Shown: positions 3,828-56,865 of the stretch, one piece after another | Position numbering within the stretch: the stretch's first letter is position 1 | How the letters are laid out: every line of letters begins with the position of its first letter | Assembly (NCBI RefSeq): GCF_030684315.1 | Contig: NC_081359.1 | Span: forward strand, 72,774,283-72,838,282 | Reading direction: 5' to 3' | DNA length: 64,000 nt | DNA from: Stegostoma tigrinum | Taxonomy: Eukaryota | Notes under the pieces: model-generated | Told to the model about the DNA's origin: nothing | What the model saw: only the letters and a program-made list of their open reading frames with translations | Databases searched by the model: none | Translations under genes and position numbers: made by a program

Positions 3828-4997
3828 CTAAACCGCCAGATCGTCCGACCTTGCCCTGCTCGCCCGGCTTATGGGTCGTGTGTCAGTAACAGGAGGATCG
3901 TGCATCTCTGCCATTGTGGTCACGTGGCCGTTTCCGCGCGGTTCCCCGCCCGCAGACGCGCTCTCCTGATTGGCCGGCGCGAGGAGCGCGCGCTCCTGAC
4001 TCCCGTTCCCACTGCCGTTGTTGGCGCTGAGTTGGCGGGTCTGCTCGGCGGCCATGTTGGCCCAGTTCTGCTCGGCGGCCAGATTGTTGTTGTACATTAC
4101 ATACGGCGATCTGTCCTCGGGCAACGCTGCCATTTTGAACTCGTTCGGCGGGGCTCCGGGGTAGGGATGGGGTCCCTCGGCTGTGTCCGGGAAGTACGGG
4201 TAACTGAAGGTGCTCGGGGCAGTTTTTGTGACTGGCGTCAGGGGCTCCGGCTTCTGCTCGAGTTCCGGGGGCTGTCGATTAGTCACTCCTTGTCGCAGCT
4301 TCTTCCAGCCGAGGTGATAGATTTCCATTAGGTTCAAGAAAAGGGACACGCAAGCCACTACAAGCATAAATAGGATGAAGATAGTCTTCTCTGTTGGCCG
4401 TGATATGAAGCAGTCCACGGTGTTGGGGCATGGCCATCTATTGCACCTGTACAGAGGTCTAAGCTTAAAGCCATATAAGATATACTGACCTACAATAAAT
4501 CCAATTTCAAACATCGCTTTGAAAATAATATTGAAAACGTAGGTGCGTAGTAAAGCCCCTTGAATTCGGATTTTGCCATGGTCATCTCTAAAAGGGAGTT
4601 TCTCCTTTTTACTATTTTTAAGCAGCACTTCTTTGTCTGCTTCATTCTGGGCTTTGCTAATCTCTTCTTCCCTCTCCTTCCTTTTATCTTCCATCCGCAC
4701 AATGTGCAGTACATGGCCCAGGTATATCAAGGTGGGCGTTGACACGAAAATGATCTGGAGCACCCAGAATCGGATGTGAGAGATGGGGAATGCCATGTCA
4801 TAGCAGACGTTCTCGCAACCGGGCTGCTGGGTATTGCAGGTGAAATCAGATTGCTCATCTCCCCAGACCTCCTCAGCTGCAGCTCCCAGCACTAGGATTC
4901 GGAAGATGAACAGCACAGTCAACCAAACCTTGCCTACCACTGTCGAGTGTTCCTGCGCATTCTCCAGAAGCCTTCCCAGAAAACTCCAGTCACCCAT
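3828..4997 (-). CDS. gja3: Gap junction alpha-3 protein (connexin 46), 389 aa, single coding exon
   Basis: N-terminus [20 protein letters not shown] typical of Cx46; extracellular loops [12 protein letters not shown] and [21 protein letters not shown]; EQNWAN motif; C-terminal [12 protein letters not shown]-binding end; adjacent to a beta connexin as in human 13q12. Confidence 0.96.
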
Positions 4998-5015
4998 TGT
5001 TTCAATTCTCTATTC

Positions 5016-12750: not shown

Positions 12751-13893
12751 AGATGGAAAAACCAAATTCAGACTTTTCAACAAAGACAGGACTTTAACTG
12801 TGAGCGCTGGGGTCCTTTAACCAATGCAGATAAGTGAAACCAAATGTAGTCCCAAATGGATCTTTGTGCTATATAAGATGTAAGCCATATATGTTTGAAT
12901 GAAATCATGGAGAGAAGAAGATGGAAGCCAATGAGGAATGCTTTGAACAGCTATTTCTGGAGATGATAGAATACATAATTGAACCTGGCAGCTGTAGACT
13001 GGTTCTTGTGGTATTTGTGGCTAGAAGGATGCAGCTACCATTCTCCGTTCCCTGACTATGTGGCTTACTGTGCTGGATTTAATAAGAAGATGCCCATCTC
13101 AGCAAAATTAGTTTTTTGCATGATACTAATTAGGTACAAGTTACATTAACTAGATACACATTCTTACTAAGACTATGGGGAAACATAAATAATGCATCAA
13201 GCCTCTTTAAGATTTAGAGCTCTTTTCCCTGTTTCTCTCCCCAAGATTGTATGATGTGATCAGATTGAATGGAACTTAATGCAGTCTGCAACACTAATCC
13301 TCACAAAACCATTATCTTACATACATTTCTACTTTGAAAGAAGGCTGGTGTTGTTACAGAGAAGAGGTAGGTAGTTTGTTTTTGTGATGAAGAGTGTAAG
13401 GAATTTGCTTAAAGTCAAAAAGGCCAACAAGGCACTGAAGAGTCTTTTGTCCAAGACAATGGCTGAGAAGGTGGATGGAACTGATCATATGTTTTAGTAG
13501 GAATTGTGTATTTAGTTAGCTGAATTTATGACTCAGAAATGATTGGATGTCAACACATGGTCTGGCAACACAGAAACAGTGGAGGGATTGAGAAATTTAG
13601 AGCCTTATATCATTGGTATATATGTGGAAGCTGACATCACATTGGCGCAGGATGTGATGTGACTGAATGGAAGCAGGAGGATAGCTCCTTGGTGACAGCA
13701 GGTGGTAGTGGATAGGTTCGAAGAAATGTCATTGATAAGGATAAACAAAACCAAAGCACTGAGGAGGCAGGAAATCAGAAAGAAAAACAAAAATTACTGG
13801 AAAAACTCAGCAGGTCCAGCAGAATCTGTTTGCTTCACGTATGAGAGCTGGTGGGATCAATGCCCACATTCTCCAGTTGGGCTCTGTGGTGGT

Positions 13894-13967
13894 GGTTGCT
13901 TAGCTCAGCTGGTAAGAACATGGTGATAATAGCGCCAAGGTCACGGGTTCAATCCCCATATTACCCA
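13894..13967 (+). pseudogene. tRNA-Ile(AAT) pseudogene or SINE head
   Basis: ttagctcagctggtaagaacatggtgatAATagcgccaaggtcacgggttcaatcccc closely matches vertebrate tRNA-Ile-AAT; acceptor stem broken, CpG-type transitions. Confidence 0.75.
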
Positions 13968-14690: not shown

Positions 14691-15159
14691 AAACATACGG
14701 GCGGACAAAGGAATGTGTAAAGGTCAGACTGGGAGAATCAATAGTTGCTAATGTGGACCATTAGTGGCTAACAATGGGTTGTGTCTGATGGCAGCCCATG
14801 TGATGATAAGAACTGGTGTCTGGGGGCCTGAGTAAGGGAGAAGATGTTCAAGTCCTAAAAGTGTTGAACTCAATATTTTGACTGCAGAAGTCTGCAGGGT
14901 TCCCAAATGGAATATGAGATGCTCTTCTAGTTTGCACTGAGCATTGCTGGAGCACTGTAACAAGCCAGAGACAGAGGTTTTGGCCAGGGAGCATAGTGGT
15001 GTGTTGAAATGGCGGGCAACTGGAAGCTCAGGGTCATTTTTGTGGACAGAATGTAGGTGCTCTGTAAAGCAGTCATCCCATCTCCCCTTCATCTCCCTGT
15101 ATAGAGACCACAGTGTGAACAGTGAATAGAATAGACTACATTGAGTGAAGTGAATCTGG

Positions 15160-15946
15160 ATTAATGTGAGGTATTGCATTTAGGTACAACAAACAAGGGG
15201 GGGGCTTACACAATTAATGGTAGGGTCTTGGGTAAAGTTTGTAGAACTGAGGGACCTAGGGGAGCAGTTACATACTTCCTTAAAGTTTGCATCACATACA
15301 GACAGGATGGTTAAAAAGGTGTTTGTCACGCTTGCCTTCATTACTCAGTCCTTTGAGTACAGGAGTGGGGAAGTCGTGTTGAGGTTGTACAGGACATTGG
15401 TGAGACCTCTTCTGGAATGTTGTGTACAGTGCTGGTCACTCAGTTATAGGAAGAATGTTATCAAGCTGGAGAGGGTTCAGAAGAGATTTACCGGGATGTT
15501 GCCAGGTGTGGAAGTTTAACTTATAAGGAAAGGCTGGATAGGCTGGGACTTTTTTCACTGGAGCGTAGGAAGTTAAGAGGTGACTTGATAGAAGGTTAAG
15601 AATAATGAGAGGTATAGATAGAGTTGATGGATGTTGTCTTTTCCCTAAAATGGGGAATTTGAAGACATTTTTAAGGTGAGAGGAGAGAGATTTAAAAAAA
15701 AAGACATAACAGGCAAATCTTTTACCCAGAAGGTGGTTTGCATGTGGAATGAACTTTCTGATGAAATGGTGGATGTGGGTTCAATCACAATGTTTAAAAG
15801 ACATTTGGATGGATATGTGAATAGGAAAGGTTTGGAGGGACATGGGCGAGGAGCAGGCAGGTGGGACTTGTTTTGTTTGGGATTATGTTCGGCATGGACT
15901 GGTTAGACCAAAGGGTCTGTTTCCATGCTGTATTACTCTATGACTG
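15160..15946 (+). mobile_element. 5'-truncated CR1/HER1 LINE inserted into the PLE
   Basis: LYRTLVRPLLECCVQCWS..KLERVQKRFTGMLPG; FTQKVVCMWNEL; tail ctgtattactctatgact; PLE endonuclease frame continues on both sides. Confidence 0.9.
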
Positions 15947-18970: not shown

Positions 18971-19204
18971 GATAGATGTTACCATGAAATCCCCTCTAGG
19001 CCTGGCCCTTGCTAAGATCTTCATTGGATTCTGTTAGAATCATATCCTTAATTGTATGACCACTAACCAACTACCCCACATATTTCTGATATGTGGATGG
19101 TATGCTTGCCATATTTAAATCAACAACTGCAAGGATTTATTTTAATTACTCCTTAATAGACCTGGAGTCTGTTTTGTGGAGCACCTGCACTCAGTATGTG
19201 ATAA

Positions 19205-19660
19205 CAACACCACCTTACGTCACCAACCATTTTAATTTCCCTTCCCACTCCCAGGGAAGGCATGCCCCTCCTAGCCTCCTCTATCACCCCAATGACACCA
19301 CACACAAACTGGAAGAGTACACAGAGGACACCTCGCATTATGATTCATAAGCCCACAAGCATTCACCAGTTTTAAAATCTCCCCACTCTCAGCCTCATCC
19401 ATGTCCAACTGTCCTTATCATTCCCACTCCTCCCACCTATCCACACCACCCATCCCACTGACCGAGCCCACCTGCATTCACCTAATCTCTCTTCTGTCTT
19501 TCATTTTCCCAGCTCCCTCCCCCCGCTTCCCATTTCCTGAATAAGGGTTCCGACCTGAAATGTCAGCTTTCCTGCTCCTATGATGTTGCCTAGTCTGCTG
19601 TGTTCCTTTAACTCCACACTGCATTGTTTCTTACAAGAACTGCAGATGCTAGTGTTATCT
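19205..19660 (+). mobile_element. Penelope-like element 3' fragment
   Basis: VTNHFNFPSHS, C-rich 3' region, decayed hammerhead CTGAATA(19537)agggttccgacctGAAATGTCagcttt and tail homologous to 37055-37720. Confidence 0.75.
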
Positions 19661-22150: not shown

Positions 22151-22310
22151 CCCACTTCACACAAAAAGGGGGAATTTATACTCAACCACAAAAACCTGTA
22201 TGTTTATTCAGAAATTGAAATCAATTTCTTCCACTTTTAAATACAGTGACAGACCAATAGCATGAAGGTTGCTGGGCAGAATGAGATCAGAACATTATGC
22301 ATTTGCAACT

Positions 22311-22438
22311 CAGATAATGGGAACTGCAGATGCTGGAGAATCCAACATAACAAAGTGGTTGAACATAGCAGGCCAAGCAGCATCTCAGATCCTGATATGC
22401 TGCTTGACTTGCTGTGTTCATCCAGCTTCACTTTGTTA
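22311..22438. mobile_element. PLE-terminus-derived mini palindrome (family A)
   Basis: tgaacatagcaggccaagcagcatctcag / ctgatatgctgcttgacttgctgtgttca inverted arms; atgcatttgc on both flanks. Confidence 0.75.
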
Positions 22439-24203
22439 GCATGCATTTGCTGTTGTTCGCTTAAGACACATGGGGTGTACTTTCACCTACTGACCAGAAG
22501 ATGGCAGCCTGCACCATCACCAGTCACAGGTTGGGGAAACTGGCAATAAGATAGCTCAATGAGCTTCTTTCAGACATCAGTACCATGTCACTGGAGTCCA
22601 AGAAACAAACATCCCGAATACTGCTTCTTCGAACTCACTGGAGAACACTAGAGCAAAAATATTGCTTTCAAAGCTAGATAGTAATCCACGAGCACTAAGC
22701 CTCATGAAACTAGTTTGTACTGACAATTGCATTTTGTTAAAAGGGAAATTTAAATTTGTTACAGGGTGCAAGTTTAGATTTTTAATAAGTGCTCCAAATT
22801 CTACCAAAGTGAGAAGCATAGTGCCAAAACCTCAAAAGGTCATTGATAGAGGTAGCAGGTTTAAAAAAGTTAAATGCAGAGAGTAATTGCAGTGGGAAAG
22901 ACAAAACAGGGGTAAAACTTTAAAAAAGTGCAGGAAGGAGCAGAGGGGCCTGGGGGTGCATGTACACAAAAAAAAACCGAAGAATTATGCTATAGATGCA
23001 AGAAAGGTTGCATTCATCTTAACAAGATGAGAGTTTGGCTTCAGGAATAAGAGGTACCCTAGTTCAGGCGCTGAATTTCAATGCCTTGATGACCATGTAG
23101 ACAAATTGTGTTCTGATAAGGCATGGGCTTTAAGAGGCCTTTAAACACCACCTCATTAAAAACCTAGATTATATAGCTGCTACACTTGAACAACATCTTC
23201 AGCTTTTTCTTTTAAAGAAAAAAAAACTTATTCTAGTAGGAACAAGTTAATGGACATAGACTCTGGGATCTGAGTTTAACTTTTAAAGTCACCAGGAATT
23301 TATGAAGCTTGCCCTCTGCTTTTGCCTAGAGTTGCATTCAGGTTAGCCTACAGCAGTCTAATTTGCATTGGGGCTGCTTAGTCATTTTTAATTACTTCAC
23401 TTGCTTTGTTCAAAAAGCATTACATATTCAATAATGCTAGTAACTGTCCACCAGAAACAGTACTATGTTACTGTAATTAGTAGCAGCTCAAGTAACTTGG
23501 GCTCTTGATCTTAGAATTCTCCGGCTCTAGTTCCAACAACATCCTGGAAGGCATTCTGAGCTCCTGTTAAGTGCAGTACTTACCAACAGCCTTCTGGGAA
23601 AAGGGTAATGGCAGTTATTTTAATGGTATCTAATCCCCACAAAACCTTTGCATCCCTGTCTGGTTGTGTATTTTCCCCCCCAATAAAGGTTGAAACAGGT
23701 TTTCCCAATTTGTATTCACACTATGGACAGGACACAAACACAAGACAGCTTCAGAAAGCTTTTAGCTAGAGGAATTATACAGGTGGGAAATAGTTTGCTT
23801 TTAAAGCATGGGCCTCAAGTGCAAGTTATACAAGTCTGGCCCTAGGGGCTGATTGATTCCAAGCTAGAGTGGTGTTCCCATACACTTCCTTCAGCTGTTG
23901 GAGGGAAGGGGGTGTGGAGAAAAAGGGAGTGAGTAAGTTAGTTAAAAATAAGTCAATCCTGGAACTCCAGGAGCACCAAGACTGTAGTTTAGTGGGTTTC
24001 TCATTCATTAGAATGAAAGAAGAAACCCTAGATACCAAAACTTCCTGGGCCATACGTGATGAGGCAGCTAATCTTTCTGGAAAGAAAAAAGCAAGCAAAC
24101 GTCAGTTATTTCTACTGCAATTAAGAAGTTGCCATCCTTGGTCAACAGGGATCCAACGACCAACTAAGCACAGTGAGGTAATCAGGGCAGTGAGGAGTAC
24201 AAG

Positions 24204-25088: not shown

Positions 25089-25877
25089 TCAGGATGTTTT
25101 GTTCAGCTCCATGGCCATCTTGTGTTTGGCGTCAACGGACAGGAGTTCGTTCATTTCGTTTTGTTGGTGCTCTCTGCTCCTGGAGACGTGGTGGGGGTGG
25201 TGCGTGCGGCGGGACTGCCTCACACAAGCTTTCACCAACAAATAGAACAGCTCGGCCACATTCAGGAGGCCGCAGACCCCGGACACCACCGTCATGAAGA
25301 TGATGAACACAGTCTTCTCGGTGGGTCTAGAAATGAAGCAGTCCACGGTATTGGGACAGGGGGAGGCGCTACACTTCACCAGCCGGGCCATCTGAAAGCC
25401 ACCGTAGAGGAAGTACAGCATGTAAGTGAAAACCGTCTCGAACAGGATGCGAAAGATGATGCTGGTGACATAGGTCCACCAGAAAGCACCAACAATCCGC
25501 ATTTTCTGCTTCCTCAGGGCATCCACTTCCTCCTGCTTCAGGAAGCCCTGCCGTTTCTCCATGCATTTCTTCTCTTCGTGCTGTTTATAGGCAACGTGCA
25601 GCGACACCAGGAGGGCAGGGGTGGAGATAAAGATCACTTGCAGACACCAGAGTCGGATGTGAGACATAGGGAAAAACTGATCATAGCACACGTTCTTGCA
25701 GCCGGGCTGCAGAGTATTGCAGACAAAATCGGACTGCTCGTCTCCCCAGACACTCTCGGCCGCTACCACCAGAATCATGATTCTGAAAACGAAGATCACA
25801 GACAGCCAGATTTTCCCGATGCTAGTGGAGTGTCTGTTGACGCCTCCCAGGATCAGGTGCAGTTGTCCCCAGTTCAT
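25089..25877 (-). CDS. gjb2: Gap junction beta protein, Cx26/Cx30 (GJB2/GJB6) type, 262 aa
   Basis: [57 protein letters not shown]; C-tail QNEMNELLS as in Cx30; synteny with gja3. Symbol is best read as a gjb2/gjb6 co-orthologue. Confidence 0.9.
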
Positions 25878-25896
25878 CTCTCGAACTCAGTCAGAC

Positions 25897-27714: not shown

Positions 27715-28002
27715 ATTTGGATAGGTACATGAATAGGAAAGGTTTAAAGGAATATGGCTCAATAAAAGTTGCAGCTGAATGGGGCTCTCTGATGAAGGGT
27801 CTAGGCCTGAAACGTCAGCTTTTGTGCTCTTGAGATGCTGCTTGGCATGCTGTGTTCATCCAGCTCCACACTTTGTTATCTTGGATTCTCCAGCATCTGC
27901 AGTTCCCATTATGACTGGTAAATGGGACTTGTTTAGTTTGGGAAACTTGGTCAGCATAGTTAAGTTGGACCAAAGGATCTGTATTTTTGCTGTCTGACTC
28001 TA
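27715..28002 (+). mobile_element. CR1 3' end interrupted by a hammerhead-bearing family A element (about 27785-27912)
   Basis: CR1 tail ttggataggtacatgaataggaaagg..ggaccaaaggatctgt..gactcta; insert CTGATGA(27789)agggtctaggcctGAAACGTCagcttt..gcagttcccattat. Confidence 0.8.
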
Positions 28003-29639: not shown

Positions 29640-30200
29640 ACATTGTCAATACAGTGCGGAGCTGGAGGAAAACTGCAGGTCAGGTAGCATCAGTGGAGCA
29701 GGAGGGGGCCTGCACCCTTCATCAGGACTAAGGAGTGGGAAGGGAGGAGGGATGGGGCTGGTGGAAGGTAGGTGGGAAGGCAATAGGTGGATGTAGGTGA
29801 GGTAGTGGGATTTGGTCAGTGGGAAGAGTGGGTCAGATAGATGGGGAAGAGGATGGACAGGTAGTGTTGGGTCCAGGAGGCGGGGATAAGAGCAAAACTG
29901 GTGAATTCTATGTTCAGTCTGTCAGGCTAGAATATGAGGTGTTGTTCCTCCAGTTTGCGTGTGGTATCATTGTGATGCTGGAGGACGCCCAGGATGCCAT
30001 GTCACCAAGGGACTGAGAGGGGGAGTTAAAATGGTTAGTGACTAGAAGGTGTTGTCATTTGTTGTCTACAGAGCGCAGATGTTGTACAAAATGGTCCCCG
30101 AGTCTACGCTTGGCCACGTCAGGAACAGCAGATACAGTAGACCAGGTTGGAGGATGTACAAGTGAACACCTGTCAGAAATGGAACGTTTGTCTTGGGCTT
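29640..30200 (-). mobile_element. Penelope-like element 3' fragment
   Basis: KRRLGDHFVQHLRSVDNK; terminal repeat gcggagctggaggaaaactgcaggtcagg..cccttcatcag. Confidence 0.8.
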
Positions 30201-30774: not shown

Positions 30775-31290
30775 TGTCGACATCTGTAGAGAGAGAAACA
30801 CAGTCATGTTTGAAGTTCAGTCTGACTGTTCTTCAGAACTGTTGACAGAGAGGGAAGAGTGAGTGCAACAGATGGTGAGGGTGCCCAGAGCAAAAGACAA
30901 AGAGAGAAGGTATAATAGGAGCAGGAAAGCTGGTGTTTTGGGTCAGGACCGTTCTTCATGAGGGTCCCGACCCAAAACATCAGCTTTCCTGCTCCTCTGA
31001 TGCTGCCTGGTCTGCTGTATTCCTCCAGCTGCACGCTGTGTTATCTCTGACTCCAGCATTGGCAGTTCTTACTATCTCTCAGGTACAATGTGCATGTTTT
31101 ATATCTGTTTATCTCCTTTACCTCCACTATTATCACTCTTTTTATCTTTGGCTATGGGCACCATCATCATCTGTTCCACTTACTCCTCCTCCCCTTTGTC
31201 AACTGCTTAAGCATAACTTTCAAGCCCCCTTCAGTTATGATCTGACTTCAAATGTTCACACATGCTGCCAGACCTGCTGAGTTTCTGAGT
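30775..31290. mobile_element. Nested PLE-derived palindromes
   Basis: Outer arms ~30840-30905 / 31140-31205; inner insert 30917-31080 with arms aggagcaggaaagctggtgttttgggtc / gacccaaaacatcagctttcctgctcct and TSD aggtataat/aggtacaat. Confidence 0.75.
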
Positions 31291-35982: not shown

Positions 35983-36141
35983 TGCATAGGATTCATGGTG
36001 ACTTATCTATGTAGATTCAGTCTTGGCTTGGCCATAGAAGGCTGCAGGTAGTGGTGGAAGGTTGTTTTTCAGGCTGGAGTTCCCTGACTAGTGGTGTTCT
36101 GCAGGGATCTGTACTAGGATGTGATATATGTAAATGACTTG

Positions 36142-36560
36142 CGAGTTTTGAGAAGATTTGTAGCTCAGGTTGAGGTTCCGGATGTGAGTTTGCCCGCTGA
36201 GCTGGAAGGTTAGTTTTCAGACGTTTTGTCACCATTCCAGGTAACATCATCAGTGAGCCTCCGATGAAGCGCTGGTGTTATGTCCCGCTTTCTATTTATC
36301 TGTTTAGGTTTCCTTGGATTGGTGATGTCATTGCCTGCGTTGGTGATGTCATTTCCTGTTCTTTTTCTCAGAGGATGGTAGATTGGCTCCAAATTAATGT
36401 GTTTGTTGATGGAGTTCCGGTTGGAATGCCATGCTTCTAGGAATTCCTAAACAGATAAATAGAAAGCGGGACATAACACCAGCGCTTCATCGGAGGCTCA
36501 CTGATGATGTTACCTAGAATGGTGACGAAACGTCTGAAAACTAACCTTCCAGCTCAGTGA
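36142..36560 (-). mobile_element. Young Penelope-like 3' fragment with inverted terminal repeat
   Basis: TSD gtaaatgacttg at 36130-36141 and 36561-36572; arms 36197-36308 / 36446-36558; minus-strand EFLEAWHSNRNSINKHINLEPIYHPL (PLE endonuclease C-terminus). Confidence 0.9.
36498..36537 (+). ncRNA. Minimal type-I hammerhead ribozyme motif
   Basis: tca CTGATGA t gttacc-tagaat-ggtgac GAAA C GTC tga: intact core, 6-bp stem II, palindromic AC/GT stem III, GUC cleavage triplet. Confidence 0.75.
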
Positions 36561-37054
36561 GTAAATGACTTGGATGAAAATCTAGTTGGTTGGGTTAGTA
36601 AATTTACAGATGATACTAAGATCAATGGAGTTGTGGATAGTGTCAAAGGTTGCAATGAGATATAAATCAGTTGCAGAAGTGGGCAGAGAAATGGCAGATA
36701 AAGTTTAATCTATGTAAGTGTGAGGTGCTGCACTTCGGGAGATCAAATTTTAAGGAAAAGTATACAGTTAATGGCATGACTCTGAACAACATTGATTTAC
36801 AGAAGGATCTTGGGCTTCAAGTCCACAGCTCCCTGAAAGTGGCCACACAAGTAGATAGGGAGGTAAAGAAGGCATATGGCATGCTTGCCTTTATTGGTCA
36901 GGGAATTGAGTACAAGAATCAGGATGTCATGTTGCAGCTTTATAAAACTTTGGTTCGGTCACACTTAGAGTAATGCATTCAGTTTTGATCGTCACATTAC
37001 AGGAAGAATGTGAAGGCTTTGAAGAGGGTGCTGAAGAGGTTTACCAGGATGATG

Positions 37055-37720
37055 AGATAGTAGGAACTGCCAATGCTAGAGAATCTGCGATAACAAGGTA
37101 TAGAGGTGGATGAACACAGCAGGCCAAGCAGCATCAGAGGAGCAGGAAAACTGACATTTCAGTTTGAGACCCTTCTTCAGAAATGGGGGAGGGGAAGGAC
37201 ATTCTGAAATAAATAGGGAGAAAGGGGGAGGTGGATAGAAGATGGATAAAGGAGAAGATAGGTGGAGAGGAGACAGACTGATAAAGGAGGCAGGGTTGGA
37301 GCCAGTAAAGATGAGTGTAGGTGGGGAGTTAGGGAGGGGATAGGTCAGTCCAGGGAGGACGGACAGGTCAAGGAGGTGGGATGAGGCCAGTAGGTAGGAG
37401 ATGGGGGTGGGGCCTGAGGTGGGAGGACAGTTTAGGGAGGCAGGTATGAGCTGGGCTGATTTTGGGATGTGGTTGGGGGAGGGGAGATTTTGAAGCGTGT
37501 GAAGTTCACATTGATACCATTGGGCTGCAGGGCTGCAGCGAAATATGAGATGCTGTTCCTGCAACCTTTGGGTGGCATTGTTGTGGCACTGCAGGAGGCC
37601 CAGGATGGACATGTCATCTAAGGAGTGGGAGGGGGAGTTGAAATGGTTCGCGACTGGGAGGTGCAGTTGTTTGTTGCAAACCGAGCGGAGGTGTTCCACA
37701 AAGTGGTCCCCCAGCCTTGC
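37055..37720 (-). mobile_element. Penelope-like element 3' region (endonuclease plus family A terminus)
   Basis: EHLRSVCNKQLHLPVANHFNSPSHSLDDMSILGLLQC..QEQHLIFR; downstream CTGAAGAagggtctcaaactGAAATGTCagt (37150-37182) and the family A tail. Confidence 0.9.
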
Positions 37721-37998
37721 TTGGAGGGTATTGTATTTAAGTTGGGGGGGAAGTTCAAAGGAGATGTGAGGGGCACATTTTTCACACAGAGAATCATAGG
37801 AGTGTGGAATGCGCTGTCAGATGTGGTGGTGGAGGTAGATATGATAGGGGCATTTAAGAGACTTTTAGATAGCACATGAATATGCAAGGAATGGAAGGAT
37901 ATGGACCAAGGGCAGGTTGAAGGGATTAGTTCAATTTAGCGTCATGTTTGGCATAACATTGTGGGCCAAAGGGCCCATTCTTGTGCTGTACAGTTCTA

Positions 37999-52149: not shown

Positions 52150-52935
52150 CACCTCAGTGTTCTGCATCCACCCTCTCTGCCTCCTCCTCATTCTCATCAT
52201 GCTCCTCCTGTCCCCCTGATGAGATGTCCCTTCCAGAGACTCACCATCCTCAACGTGCATACCTCTCTGGACGGCCATGTTATGGAGAGGGTCAAAGACC
52301 ACCAAATGAGCAAGAACCTTTCAGGAGGAGATTGCAGGACCTCACTTGACTGGTGCAGGCACCAAAACTGCATCTTGAGAAACCTGAAGGCCTACTCAAT
52401 GGCAGTCCTAGTATTGAATTATGTCTGTGCCTCTGTTTGGGACTTCTCTTCAAGTAATCTCCCTGGGTCCCTAGGATACATTCATGCTGTTTGGAATGAA
52501 GACCTGCAGAAGCCTGAATTGGCAAGGATGAAGGAGACCTGGGAGCTGTCAGGAAGGTGACTGTACATGGGGGGAATGCCTTGCTGTGGTTCCAGACAGT
52601 TGAACTTTGAGGGAATGGAAGTCCTTTACATTAATTAATCTGACTAGGCAGTCACTCAGTGCCTCGACGGCTACATGAAGATAATTGATAACGCTCTTGC
52701 GCCAAGGGGATTCCGGTGATGGTGGCAAAACCATCAGACTATGTCTGTCTGGAATTGAAATTGCTGTTGTGTCGGAAAATAGGGTATCTTTGACATTTGT
52801 GGTGAAGTGCTGGATTAGTCTTCGTAAAATGCCAGAAATGCCCATAATTGATCCTTGGAAAAGCCAGAAGTGAAGACATTCAAGGCCATAGAGACTTTGA
52901 TAGCTTCTGGTGGGATATGTGACCAATGCTGAGAA
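52150..52935 (-). mobile_element. PIF/Harbinger transposase remnant
   Basis: VINYLHVAVEA..LINVKDFHSLKVQL; TRTAIE*AFRFLKMQFWCL; LHNMAVQRG followed by an acidic tract. Confidence 0.7.
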
Positions 52936-52974
52936 ATGCAAGGATTTCAGGAATTAAGTCACCAATATCCAACA

Positions 52975-54347
52975 TTTTATAGACCAGTGAGCCTTACCTC
53001 AGTTGTTGGTAAAGTGTTGGAAAAGGTTATAAGGGATAGGATTTATAATCATCTAGAAAAGAATAAATTGATTAGGGATAGTCAGCACGGTTTTGTGAAG
53101 GGAAGGTTGTGCCTCACAAACCTTACTGAGTTCTTTGAGAAGGTGACCAAACAGGTAGATGAGAGTAAACCGGTTGATGTGCTGTATATGGATTTCAGCA
53201 AGGCGTTCGATAAGGTTCCCCACAATAGGCTATTGTACAAAATGTGGAGGAATGGAATTGTGGGAGATATAGCAGTTTGGATCGGAAATTGGCTTGCTGA
53301 AAGAAGACAGAGGGTGGTAGTTGATGGGAAATGTTCATCCTGGAGACCAGATACTAGTGGTGTACCGCAAAGGTCGGTGTTGGGTCCACTGCTGTTTGTC
53401 ATTTTTATCAATGACCTGGATGAGGGCGTAGAAGGATGGGTTAGTAAATTTGCAGATGACACTAAGGTCGGTGGAGTTGTGGATAGTGATGAAGGATGCT
53501 GTAGATTGCAGAGAGACATAGATAAGCTGCAGAGCTGGGCTGAGAGGTGGCAAATGGAGTTTAATGCAGACAAGTGAGAGGTGATGGACTTTGGTAGGAG
53601 TAACCGGAAGGAAAAGTACAGGGCTAATGGTAAGATTCTTAGTAGTGTAGATGAGCAGAGAGATCTCGGTGTCCATGTACACAGATCCTTGAAAGTTTCC
53701 ACCCAGGTTGACAGGGCTGTTAAGAAGGCATACAGTGTTTTAGCTTTTATTAATAGAGGGATCGAGTTCCGGAACCAAGAGGTTATGGTGAAGCTGTACA
53801 AAACTCTGGTGTGGCCGCACTTGGAGTATTGTGTACAGTTCTGGTCACCGCATTATAAGAAGGATGTGGAAGCTTTGAAAAGGGTGCAGAGGAGATTTAC
53901 TAGGATGTTGCCTGGTATGGAGGGAAGGTCTTACAAGGAAAGGCTGAGGGACTTGAGGCTGTTTTCATTAGAGAGAAGGTAGAGAGGTGACTTAATTGAA
54001 ACATATAAAATAATCAGAGGGTTAGATAGGGTGGATAGGGAGAGCCATTTTCCTAGGATGGTTACGGCGAGCACGAAGGGGCATAGCTTTAAATTGAGGG
54101 GTGAAAGATATAGGACAGATGTCGGAGGTGGTTTCTTTACTCAGAGAGTAGTAAGGGAGTGGAACGCTTTGCCTGCAACGGTAGTGGATTCGCCAACTTT
54201 AGGTACGTTTAAGTTGTCATTGGATAAGCATATGGACGTACATGGAATAGTGTAGGTTAGATGGGCTTGAGATCGGTATGACAGGTCGGCACAACATCGA
54301 GGGCCGAAGGGCCTGTACTGTGCTGTAATGTTCTATGTTCTATGTTC
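52975..54347 (+). mobile_element. Young 5'-truncated CR1/HER1 LINE with near-intact RT
   Basis: [46 protein letters not shown]; in-frame TGA at 53575 and a break near 53980; (TTCTATG)n tail. Confidence 0.95.
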
Positions 54348-54488
54348 ATTTGCCCTAAGAGTCAGGGTCCTCCAGCCCTGGTTCTAGGCTATCTCCAGTT
54401 TATTCTATCTTAGACAGTAGGTCAGAGGCGGGTCCTTGCTATTCCCTGATCCTCTCCCAGAATGAAACCTAACTTGATAGATCATATG

Positions 54489-54708
54489 ATAATAAAATGT
54501 GAGGCTGGATGAACACAGCAGGCCAAGCAGCATCTCAGGAGCACAAAAGCTGACGTTTCGGGCCTAGACCCTTCATCATCTCTGATGAAGGGTCTAGGCC
54601 CGAAACGTCAGCTTTTGTGCTCCTGAGATGCTGCTTGGCCTGCTGTGTTCATCCAGCCTCACATTTTATTATCTTGGAATTCTCCAGCATCTGCAGTTCC
54701 CATTATCT
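54489..54708. mobile_element. Perfect palindromic family A element
   Basis: 91-nt arms 54488-54578 / 54583-54673 with a tctc spacer; TSD ttgatagatcatatg at 54474-54488 and 54709-54723. Confidence 0.93.
54579..54615 (+). ncRNA. Minimal hammerhead ribozyme core
   Basis: CTGATGA(54582) a gggt-ctag-gccc GAAA C GTC agc; stem I partner weak in this copy. Confidence 0.6.
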
Positions 54709-55589
54709 TTGATAGATCATATGTTTAGTTGTTTTCCTTTGGTACTTAGTCACTGAAAACATATTCATATAAGACTGCAAACATTCTTTAACATCAGAAC
54801 ATAAGTTTATTTTGTAATAGAGAAAACAAACAAACAAAGCTTTATACAAAAACAGCAAAACAAATTTTCAACCTGTTTCCCAACACTATCATTCTACAGA
54901 TACTCAATTCCAGAGATAAATCACTCCTGTCTCAACCTTTAATTTTTTTACTTTACTGGTTCTTCACAATTTATTTTCTTTGCTTTTCAGTCTTATGATT
55001 CTGTTTGAACTGTGTCAGTGTGAACCTTTTTCAATTCTAATTACCTAAATCTCTTTGCAGTTTGTGTAGCTGGACCACTTCGAGACATGTTCACAACTTT
55101 GTCACTTCACAGACTGAAAACAATTTCAGTTAGGATGATTGGTTCCCCTGAAATGAACACTTTATTTTCCCAAACTGAAGTCAAGAAAATGGGCTCTGGT
55201 TTGTTTGTAGACTCAGCTGCATAAACATTCCTTTCGTTGATGCCATGGGTATCCTATCCAGTGAAGTAAGGACCTGAAGACAAGGAGTCCGCACACTTAA
55301 AGGAGCGAACAAGCTGAGGACCCCAAGACAGGGAGTCAGCAGCTTCTAAACAAGCAGGTGGGAAGAGGTCATCTAGATGGACATAGAGCGTCCATAAGAG
55401 GACCAGGCAGTCAGAGACAAAGCTTGATTCATTGGAACTGATTGGAGTTGGTTCTTTGTCTATGTAATAACTCAGGAAGTCTAACTAGAAAGGGAAATTG
55501 TTTAGTTTTGAACACCAAAATAGAGCCACGATTCATGGTGTACTTAAATTAGTCCCAGCCTGGGATTGATAATTCTGCAGATCCATCCT

Positions 55590-56865
55590 TGGGTCTGCTT
55601 TTTTTAAGCATATGGATCTACTTTATAGACTGTTTTAATCAACCTGTTCGGTAATGATATTGCACACCTTTGGAACTGGTAGTACTTGAACCTAAGTCTC
55701 TTGGTCTAGAGATAGGGACACTACCACTGCACCACAGGAGTCCTATAGGTCTTTTTATTAATTAGCCTGTTAAGTGATATTATGACATACCCCTGGAGTA
55801 GATGGGACGTGAACTCAAGTCTCCTGGGCCAGAGGTAGGGACACTGCACCTTAACAGACTTTGCGTCTGTTTTGTTTAATATGCAAAAGTGTTATTACAC
55901 ACAAACGAATAGCTTCCCCACCAGGAAATTGCCGTTTTTATTCTTTGTTTTTAATTATTAATCACCACCAGTAATCACCTGTGCACGGGTCTATTCTATT
56001 TATATTTTCCATTCAACCTGTTCAGAAATGTTACTAAACACCTCTGAAGCACATGGAACCTGAACCTAGGTCTCCTAGGTCAAAGGCAGGACATTGCCAC
56101 TGCACTATAAACAGCTTATTGGTCTGTTTTCTTTTGTTTTATAATTTCACCATGTTCTGTTTTTCAGAAACCTTTAATCAACTTGCTCAGACATGTAATG
56201 ACATACTTGTGGAGCAATTGGGACTTGAACCCAGGACACCTAGCTCACAGGTAGGGACATTACCACTGCATCACAAGCGCTCACTAGGTCTGCTTTATCT
56301 TTTTTCAACTCTTTTTCTCTTGTTTCTTTATCTTATATCCAGAAGTGTTATCACACACAACTGAACAACTTTTGAACAACCAAAGAAGGGGATATAAAGC
56401 ACTGTAAGCCCTTATGGTGCCCACCACTCTCCAAAGGCATCAAGAACATTGATCCGCACAGTGTGCTCCCTCTCTAAGGACACCTGGGCACAAGCATAAG
56501 AGGGGAAGACAGTTTGGATCTGCTTTTTTATACACCCAGAAGTACTATCACATACTACCAAGTGACTTTCGCAAGACGAAAATCACCATGACATTTGTTT
56601 GCTTTTTTCCCACTTTATTAACAGCCACCAGCAATCAGTCATGTGGTCAATTAAATATCTACAAGCAAAGTTCATTATTGGAAACTGTCAAAAGTGAGGG
56701 GGGGGGGTGGCTATGAAGACAGGGAAGGTACTGGATCTGCTATATGATTTTTTTAATCACGCACACTGAGCGACTTTCCCACCACCAAAATCACCATGAC
56801 TTTTGTTTTCTGTATTTTTTTAACTACCACCACTAATCACCCACGTAGCTAATTGAGTATTTACC
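55590..56865 (-). repeat. Degenerate tandem array of family X SINE units and a second ~110-bp unit
   Basis: tRNA-like units near 55635, 55760, 56012 and 56175; second unit (agaagtgttatcacacac..caccaccagtaatcac) near 55886, 56341, 56539 and 56755; recurring ggtctg[ct]ttt spacer. Confidence 0.7.

Follow-up and report, generated by a model that had tools for sequence, protein, structure and literature searches.

The palindrome at positions 54474–54723 of the window (the whole 64,000-nt stretch of Stegostoma tigrinum DNA analyzed here) is very probably a dead-on-arrival insertion of a shark Penelope-like retrotransposon (Penelope-like element, PLE) that is present in high copy number and whose RT/GIY-YIG protein carried out the insertion. 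Its layout is a TSD, an inverted tail-less copy of the element end, a sense copy with a 35-nt tail and a second TSD. The unit so enclosed is a 220-nt stump without an ORF, and its features are as follows:

54474..54488, + strand: left TSD copy, 15 bp, 11 of 15 bases A/T; its final base also belongs to the left arm
54488..54578, − strand: inverted tail-less PLE end (pLTR piece), from the tail boundary to one base before C3
54552..54578, − strand: disabled hammerhead core of the inverted copy, without C3 and without the 5' strand of helix I; missed by the core descriptor
54579..54582, + strand: "spacer", consisting of the sense copy's first four bases, which are family sequence; C3 is 54582
54580..54611, + strand: minimal type I hammerhead motif, matched by the core descriptor; candidate ribozyme
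54583..54673, + strand: right arm, sense PLE end; the peptide encoded by 54579–54623 matches the C-terminus of P0004, a shark RT/GIY-YIG protein, at 14 of 15 residues
54674..54708, + strand: PLE "tail", 35 nt, present in the sense copy only
54709..54723, + strand: right TSD copy; the flank contigs of organisms B and C cease matching at 54709

The two arms, 91 nt each (54488–54578 and 54583–54673), are exact reverse complements of each other (100% complementary) with a 4-nt spacer, TCTC, at 54579–54582. The probability of such arms arising by chance anywhere in the window is about 1e-45, and no other perfect inverted repeat longer than 16 nt with a spacer of up to 60 nt is found in the window. 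The direct repeat of 15 bp (54474–54488 and 54709–54723; chance 3e-9 at this fixed place) encloses the whole unit. Thus, the perfect arms, the spacer, the 15-bp TSD and the genuine insertion that had been claimed in the preliminary description all stand, with one refinement: given that base 54488 is common to the left repeat and the left arm, the TSD is 14–15 bp long. With 11 of its 15 bases A/T, it points to an A/T-rich target. The unit is asymmetric, as the sense copy exceeds the arm by 35 nt (54674–54708) while the inverted copy has no tail. The spacer is family sequence rather than filler: the copy at 27786 carries the identical four letters before its core, and the consensus of 463 loose contig ends carries a pyrimidine tract on upstream of 54579. 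The arm junction is blunt, with zero overlap, no microhomology and no filler, and it lies inside the CUGAUGA box, where the + strand reads CTGATGA (54582–54588) and the − strand reads ATGATGA without C3; the sequences of both strands agree in this with the turn as first described. It should be noted that the copy at 27786–27912 is a sense-only copy, 94% identical, which starts at the four pre-core letters of the focal sense copy and ends without a clear TSD.

MITEs and foldback DNA transposons have inverted repeats that extend to both termini. This class was rejected, as the focal unit has an unpaired tail of 35 nt for its right end and the sequence of a retroelement end.

The sense piece matches ten other stretches of the window at 67–98% identity, the left arm not counted, and the family is very abundant, with 124,712 contig records aligned in run X1. 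Three of the copies (37054–37732, 29648–30170 and 19170–19630) run upstream via the pyrimidine tract into a decayed reading frame, the endonuclease end of the element, the first of them being:

37054..37732, − strand: older, longer family copy with a C-terminal GIY-YIG remnant upstream of the hammerhead

A 66-residue piece of this decayed frame has 67 longer homologues among 71 candidates, of which the two named are from whale shark (84% identity) and zebra shark (81%). P0002 scored 23.2 bits for GIY-YIG (Pfam cut-off 22.6), and its RVT_1 match (E 9e-5) was below the cut-off for that family. P0004 contains RT and GIY-YIG motifs, and the last 15 residues of its predicted product agree with the translation of 54579–54623 at 14 of 15 positions, with the stop at the same position. 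Because P0004 ends in the focal peptide, the focal sequence is tied to the end of an RT/GIY-YIG element. The focal insertion is, by sequence homology, a 5'-truncated copy of an endonuclease-bearing (EN+) PLE, whose RT and GIY-YIG parts are known via the homologues. A CX2-5CxxC linker before the endonuclease, given as a mark of Neptune-type PLEs in the cited part of PMC8557442, was found in 9 of the 23 homologues with a located GIY-YIG start (of the 67), P0002 included, and is decayed in P0004. By this linker the parent element would be of the Neptune type; Nematis, with a similar linker, also fits. Pfam gave no match on two short endonuclease remnants, and pattern scans gave 0 matches in metagenome contigs and 0 in viral contigs. 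In addition, a decayed frame resembling a GIY-YIG end was observed at 14748–15179 (− strand), without Pfam support, and belongs to a more distant PLE relative.

A minimal hammerhead core descriptor (CUGANGA, GAAA and UH core) matched three sites of the window (27789, 36501 and 54582), compared to a mean of 0.05 and a maximum of 1 in 100 shuffles; the match at 54582 on the + strand bears out the hammerhead-like core that had been claimed at the turn. The focal motif consists of a 2-bp helix I (54580–54581 with 54610–54611), the core at 54582–54588, an extra A (54589) after A9, a 4-bp stem II (54590–54601) and GAAA at 54602–54605, together with a G10.1-C11.1 pair and a palindromic helix III stub. 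The minimal hammerheads of metazoan PLEs, as presented in the cited sections of Cervera and De la Pena (2014; PMC4209133), have the same core boxes, the extra base between 9 and 10.1, the G10.1-C11.1 pair, a palindromic 15.2-16.2 and no helix III. The 2-bp helix I is as in Drosophila virilis, whereas helix II is 4 bp here and 7–8 bp in the schistosome families (PMC4209133, same sections). Those sections also describe dual hammerhead motifs on opposite strands that are 100–700 bp apart, whereas the focal cores abut and one of them is without C3. The − strand core did not match the minimal hammerhead definition, and C3 is required for cleavage according to the part of PMC11167929 cited here.

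Rfam gave no hammerhead at gathering score in the window and none up to E 10 in 54400–54800, and free folding of a single arm gave neither a hammerhead fold nor a stability above expectation (z 0.9 and 0.7). Among 12 arms from 9 insertions of the window (the 31-nt match at 13797–13827 left out), stem II was paired at 94.3% and helix I at 68.8%, with only one-sided changes and no excess over shuffles. At 54579–54612 the differences listed were confined to two sites, N7 (54586) and position 54580 of helix I, where the change is wobble-compatible. Single minimal hammerheads were reported to be inactive as monomers (PMC4209133, in the part cited). We also noticed that in a few low-depth contigs, whose joints lead from 54612–54620 back to 54579–54580, the hammerhead unit stands in direct tandem; ending just past the cut site and restarting at 54579, this layout could form a dimeric ribozyme.

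In addition to the focal insertion, three further head-to-head insertions, with TSDs of 9, 10 and 12 bp, are found in the window:

30908..31089, + strand: older head-to-head insertion of the focal family; turn in the CUGA box (30957–30962); 9-bp TSD with one mismatch
22297..22450, − strand: head-to-head insertion of the focal family with a tailed and a tail-less arm; 10-bp TSD; turn at a CTGA farther on, some 40 nt downstream of C3
36130..36572: second PLE family, inserted head-to-head within a LINE fragment; 12-bp TSD; arms alike at 120 of 126 positions

The arms of these older fold-backs have decayed to matches of 32/34, 31/36 and 120/126. The insertion at 36130–36572 has a tail of about 47 nt on its minus arm and an intact core at 36501 with a 6-bp stem II; its junction lies about 55–60 nt upstream of its own core and hence off the ribozyme. 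The turn falls in the CUGA box in two of the three focal-family fold-backs of the window, i.e., in two of the four fold-backs overall. By eye, the 5' ends of four of nine insertions lie at about −4 to +8 of C3 and two at +33 to +41, while three extend more than 300 nt upstream; a crude scripted placement put one decayed arm at +15 relative to C3.

Contig sets from four of the 23 listed runs, namely X1 (organism A), X5 and X12 (organism B) and X13 (organism C), were aligned to 54553–55300, a stretch in which the left arm is represented by just 26 nt and the family sequence upstream by 4 nt. Among these contigs, 662 loose ends lie behind 54674, mixed with those of a subfamily variant, and opposite-strand joints were found at 54674/54707 in 36 contigs and at 54673/54714 in 17. 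Both outer ends of the focal arms (54673/54674 and 54707/54714) are recurrent family ends. Mostly long loose ends were also seen at the turn (463 before 54579 and 742 before 54581); since the aligned stretch ended there, ends and joints from further upstream pile up at its edge. For this reason a hotspot at the hammerhead edge was rejected as a conclusion from the contig alignment. Among the matches listed, centre variants shortened by 3, 2 and 5 letters occur in 24, 13 and 15 contigs of X1, respectively, and the last of these also in five X5 and four X12 contigs, the matched length on the left side not being given. Two of the three variants resolve into arms that end at C3+2 and at C3−3 or C3−1 and overlap by 2 nt, but the third fails to do so. 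Recurrence of the turn at CUGA is likely, and a hotspot is not proven. In the literature searched, neither palindromes of shark PLEs nor turns in the core are the subject of any paper, but subscription papers may cover them.

The position of the turn might be taken to mean that the RNA end where copying halted or turned back was produced by self-cleavage of the hammerhead. The turn does lie within the core at both the focal locus and 30957–30962, and hammerhead-compatible letters are kept in the family among the differences listed. The predicted cut, however, is after 54609, 27–31 nt downstream of the turn and the arm ends, and because the cut site is elsewhere, self-cleavage is unlikely as the cause. 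Also against it, the 23 rows listed contain no pile of loose ends at 54610, two of the four fold-backs of the window turn elsewhere, and cleavage mutants of an anole PLE insert normally, with no RNA reads ending at the cut in the part of PMC11167929 cited. Taken together, we regard self-cleavage as very improbable.

We lean instead, with only slight preference, toward two-end priming followed by head-to-head joining. The protein would nick both strands of an A/T-rich target 14–15 bp apart, and each nick would prime reverse transcription on the RNA of the element, in one case from the distal end of the tail and in the other from the tail boundary. The two cDNAs, having reached 91 and 130 nt, would both stop at the hammerhead's 5' edge and would then be joined head to head, with fill-in giving rise to the TSD. 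The ribozyme would thus mark where copying stopped, without having cut there; candidates for the stop are the 5' end of a pLTR-initiated RNA and a block at the C-rich tract. The 2-nt overlap in two of the listed centre variants is what annealing of two cDNA ends predicts, while the lack of microhomology at the focal junction and the third variant, which has no two clean arms, speak against this scheme. Given that 329 family contigs align on to 54714, so that the start of the TSD resembles the continuation of the element by about 5 nt, it is possible that the target anneals with the RNA over about 5 nt at the priming end.

Two-end priming resembles L1 twin priming, in which cDNAs primed at two nicks become joined internally and a TSD results. 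The inverted part in L1, however, derives from a separate RNA stretch that lies further upstream, whereas both arms here copy one stretch.

A close biochemical parallel is Poseidon of Anolis carolinensis (Frangieh et al., 2024; PMC11167929, in the parts cited). In vitro, its protein introduces nicks into the two strands of A/T-rich DNA, and reverse transcription begins at two internal positions that delimit the tail; insertion does not depend on ribozyme cleavage, and a dimer is predicted. Its start sites, A/T-rich target and two-strand nicks together predict the outer ends of the focal arms. Poseidon belongs to a different clade from the focal family with its Neptune-type Cys linker, and the cited parts of that paper do not treat inverted copies. 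They report that no homology was found between target and RNA, in contrast to the sharing of about 5 nt suggested here. More tentatively, the 5' edge of the hammerhead may be a family-wide stop point, at which an RT dimer starting from the tail of the first pLTR would run off after about 90 and 130 nt, the cDNAs then being joined head-to-head; we consider this possible, with the odds somewhat against it.

The main rival scheme, which differs from two-end priming in mechanism alone, is that a single cDNA begun at the tail end snapped back at the hammerhead edge and copied itself up to the tail boundary. The arm ends lie within 4 nt of each other and leave a 4-nt loop, as fold-back geometry would have it, and the identity of the arms would be automatic. 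Self-priming is also argued for such inverted junctions in the cited part of Arkhipova et al. (2013; PMC3846280), which counts against two-end priming. On the other hand, the fold would have no templated primer, as the family sequence upstream is a C-rich tract and the junction overlap is zero. Snap-back would also require the copying to halt precisely at the tail boundary, an end that two start sites account for directly. Snap-back is thus a plausible, if rather doubtful, alternative.

Insertions of this general layout have been described in other EN+ PLEs, for example a sense pLTR directly beside an inverted one, with a 9-bp TSD and, on one of the two pLTRs, a tail of 31 bp (PMC3846280), and PLE tails are 30–40 bp long (PMC8557442). 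As far as the cited sections of these two papers go, the complex EN+ PLE insertions share with the focal one the head-to-head copies, the tail at one end, the TSD round the unit and a pLTR hammerhead. They differ from it in that the focal unit is a 220-nt stump without an ORF whose arms meet within the hammerhead core. The preliminary description was therefore right about the insertion, the TSD and the core, but missed the layout of an inverted copy plus tail, which is published for PLEs and common in this genome. The TSD of 14–15 bp exceeds the 8–10 bp of the rotifer EN+ PLE examples in those sections, which weighs against the explanation favored here. Non-LTR retrozymes (bioRxiv 10.64898/2026.07.22.740005), as characterized in the part cited, are likewise short, non-autonomous, hammerhead-bearing and derived from PLE pLTRs. 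They are, however, head-to-tail tandems with at least two complete ribozymes, and this assignment was rejected for the focal unit, a single head-to-head pair with one intact core.

Contigs from organisms B and C match the right flank from exactly 54709 in all three runs other than that of organism A, and then run on for 1180 (record 26, X5), 11 (record 10, X12) and 72 (record 23, X13) other letters that do not fit the tail. From these three contigs, which stop matching at the first TSD base and whose join to the left flank we infer, the site appears to be empty in organisms B and C and the insertion to be lineage-specific, as the empty site in relatives that had been suggested as a check would have it. 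In X1, which may be the source sample, a contig without differences spans 54693–55300 and so contains 16 nt of the tail, compared to the 31 required to count as a bridge. No empty allele in organism A was seen among the 8 X1 records listed (of 124,712), and the depth of the X1 flank contig (6.26, versus 9–11 for the other listed records) is not interpretable as allele evidence.

In the four contig sets, no listed read or contig crosses the centre of the palindrome at the focal locus, as would be the case if the palindrome were a fold-back chimera of the library or the assembly. Such a chimera, however, would not create a 15-bp duplication, end an arm at the tail boundary of the family or continue into a unique flank that, in its orthologue, is joined at the first base of the TSD, and decayed versions of the same layout are found nearby. 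We therefore regard an artefact as exceedingly improbable.

The flank differs from that of organism B at 32 of 621 positions in X5 (5.2%). The absence of differences at the 91 arm sites gives a 95% upper bound of 3.2% and has a probability of 0.008 if the insertion is as old as the split. By these divergences, the insertion would date to roughly the last 60% of the branch leading to this lineage. Arm-to-arm repair in palindromes could make it look younger. Thus, the insertion is young and apparently lineage-specific, and "very recent", as it had been called, is an overstatement, given that the arms allow up to 3.2% divergence.

If the locus were transcribed, the hairpin would form, with predicted folding energies of −198.9 kcal/mol as RNA (z −25) and −127.4 as DNA (z −28). 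This very stable fold in both forms, and the small RNAs to which rotifer PLE copies give rise (PMC3846280, in the part cited), could be taken to indicate a functional or selected hairpin, i.e., a cruciform or a dsRNA substrate of Dicer or ADAR by which the family would be silenced or the ribozyme sequestered. Such stability follows directly from the insertion mechanism, however; organisms B and C seem to have an empty site, the older fold-backs of the window are decaying, and the Rfam microRNA matches are all far under their gathering scores. A functional hairpin is accordingly improbable. A microRNA precursor was rejected as well, as the best Rfam match reached 34.9 bits against 100, all 12 matches were below the cut-off and the matches reflect the hairpin only. 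No RNA run was among the 23 listed runs that contain the sequence. Most likely the product has no function: it lacks an ORF, one of its cores is broken, and transcription would leave the other buried inside the hairpin.

Other repeats surround the palindrome. A truncated LINE at 52933–54348 (+ strand; RVT_1 E 7e-29) terminates roughly 125 bp ahead of it with a short heptamer repeat, and four diverged copies of a repeat of at least 88 nt, clustered with related shorter repeats at 55635–56830, probably represent a SINE-like family. A tRNA-like Rfam match at 13894–13967 (+ strand; 30.3 bits, gathering 29) is possibly the head of a tRNA-derived SINE. By eye, two ORFs of 393 and 265 aa at 3828–5009 and 25089–25886, both on the − strand, are intact and presumably connexin-like, from which we take the window to be part of a gap-junction gene cluster. 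Four peptide motifs of a possible neighboring host gene were not found.

The focal locus is a young copy of a very abundant repeat, and its use would be limited to that of a presence/absence marker for telling related sharks apart. The class matters more for how PLEs make their inverted ends, as short, young TSD-bounded stumps of this kind preserve both start sites and the junction unmutated. If the hotspot at the hammerhead edge is true, a genome-wide census of junctions would be a cheap test of the mechanism. If the 5' edge of the hammerhead is indeed a stop point, the shark stumps would record the inverted-pLTR step of PLE insertion, and their junctions could discriminate between two-end priming and snap-back.
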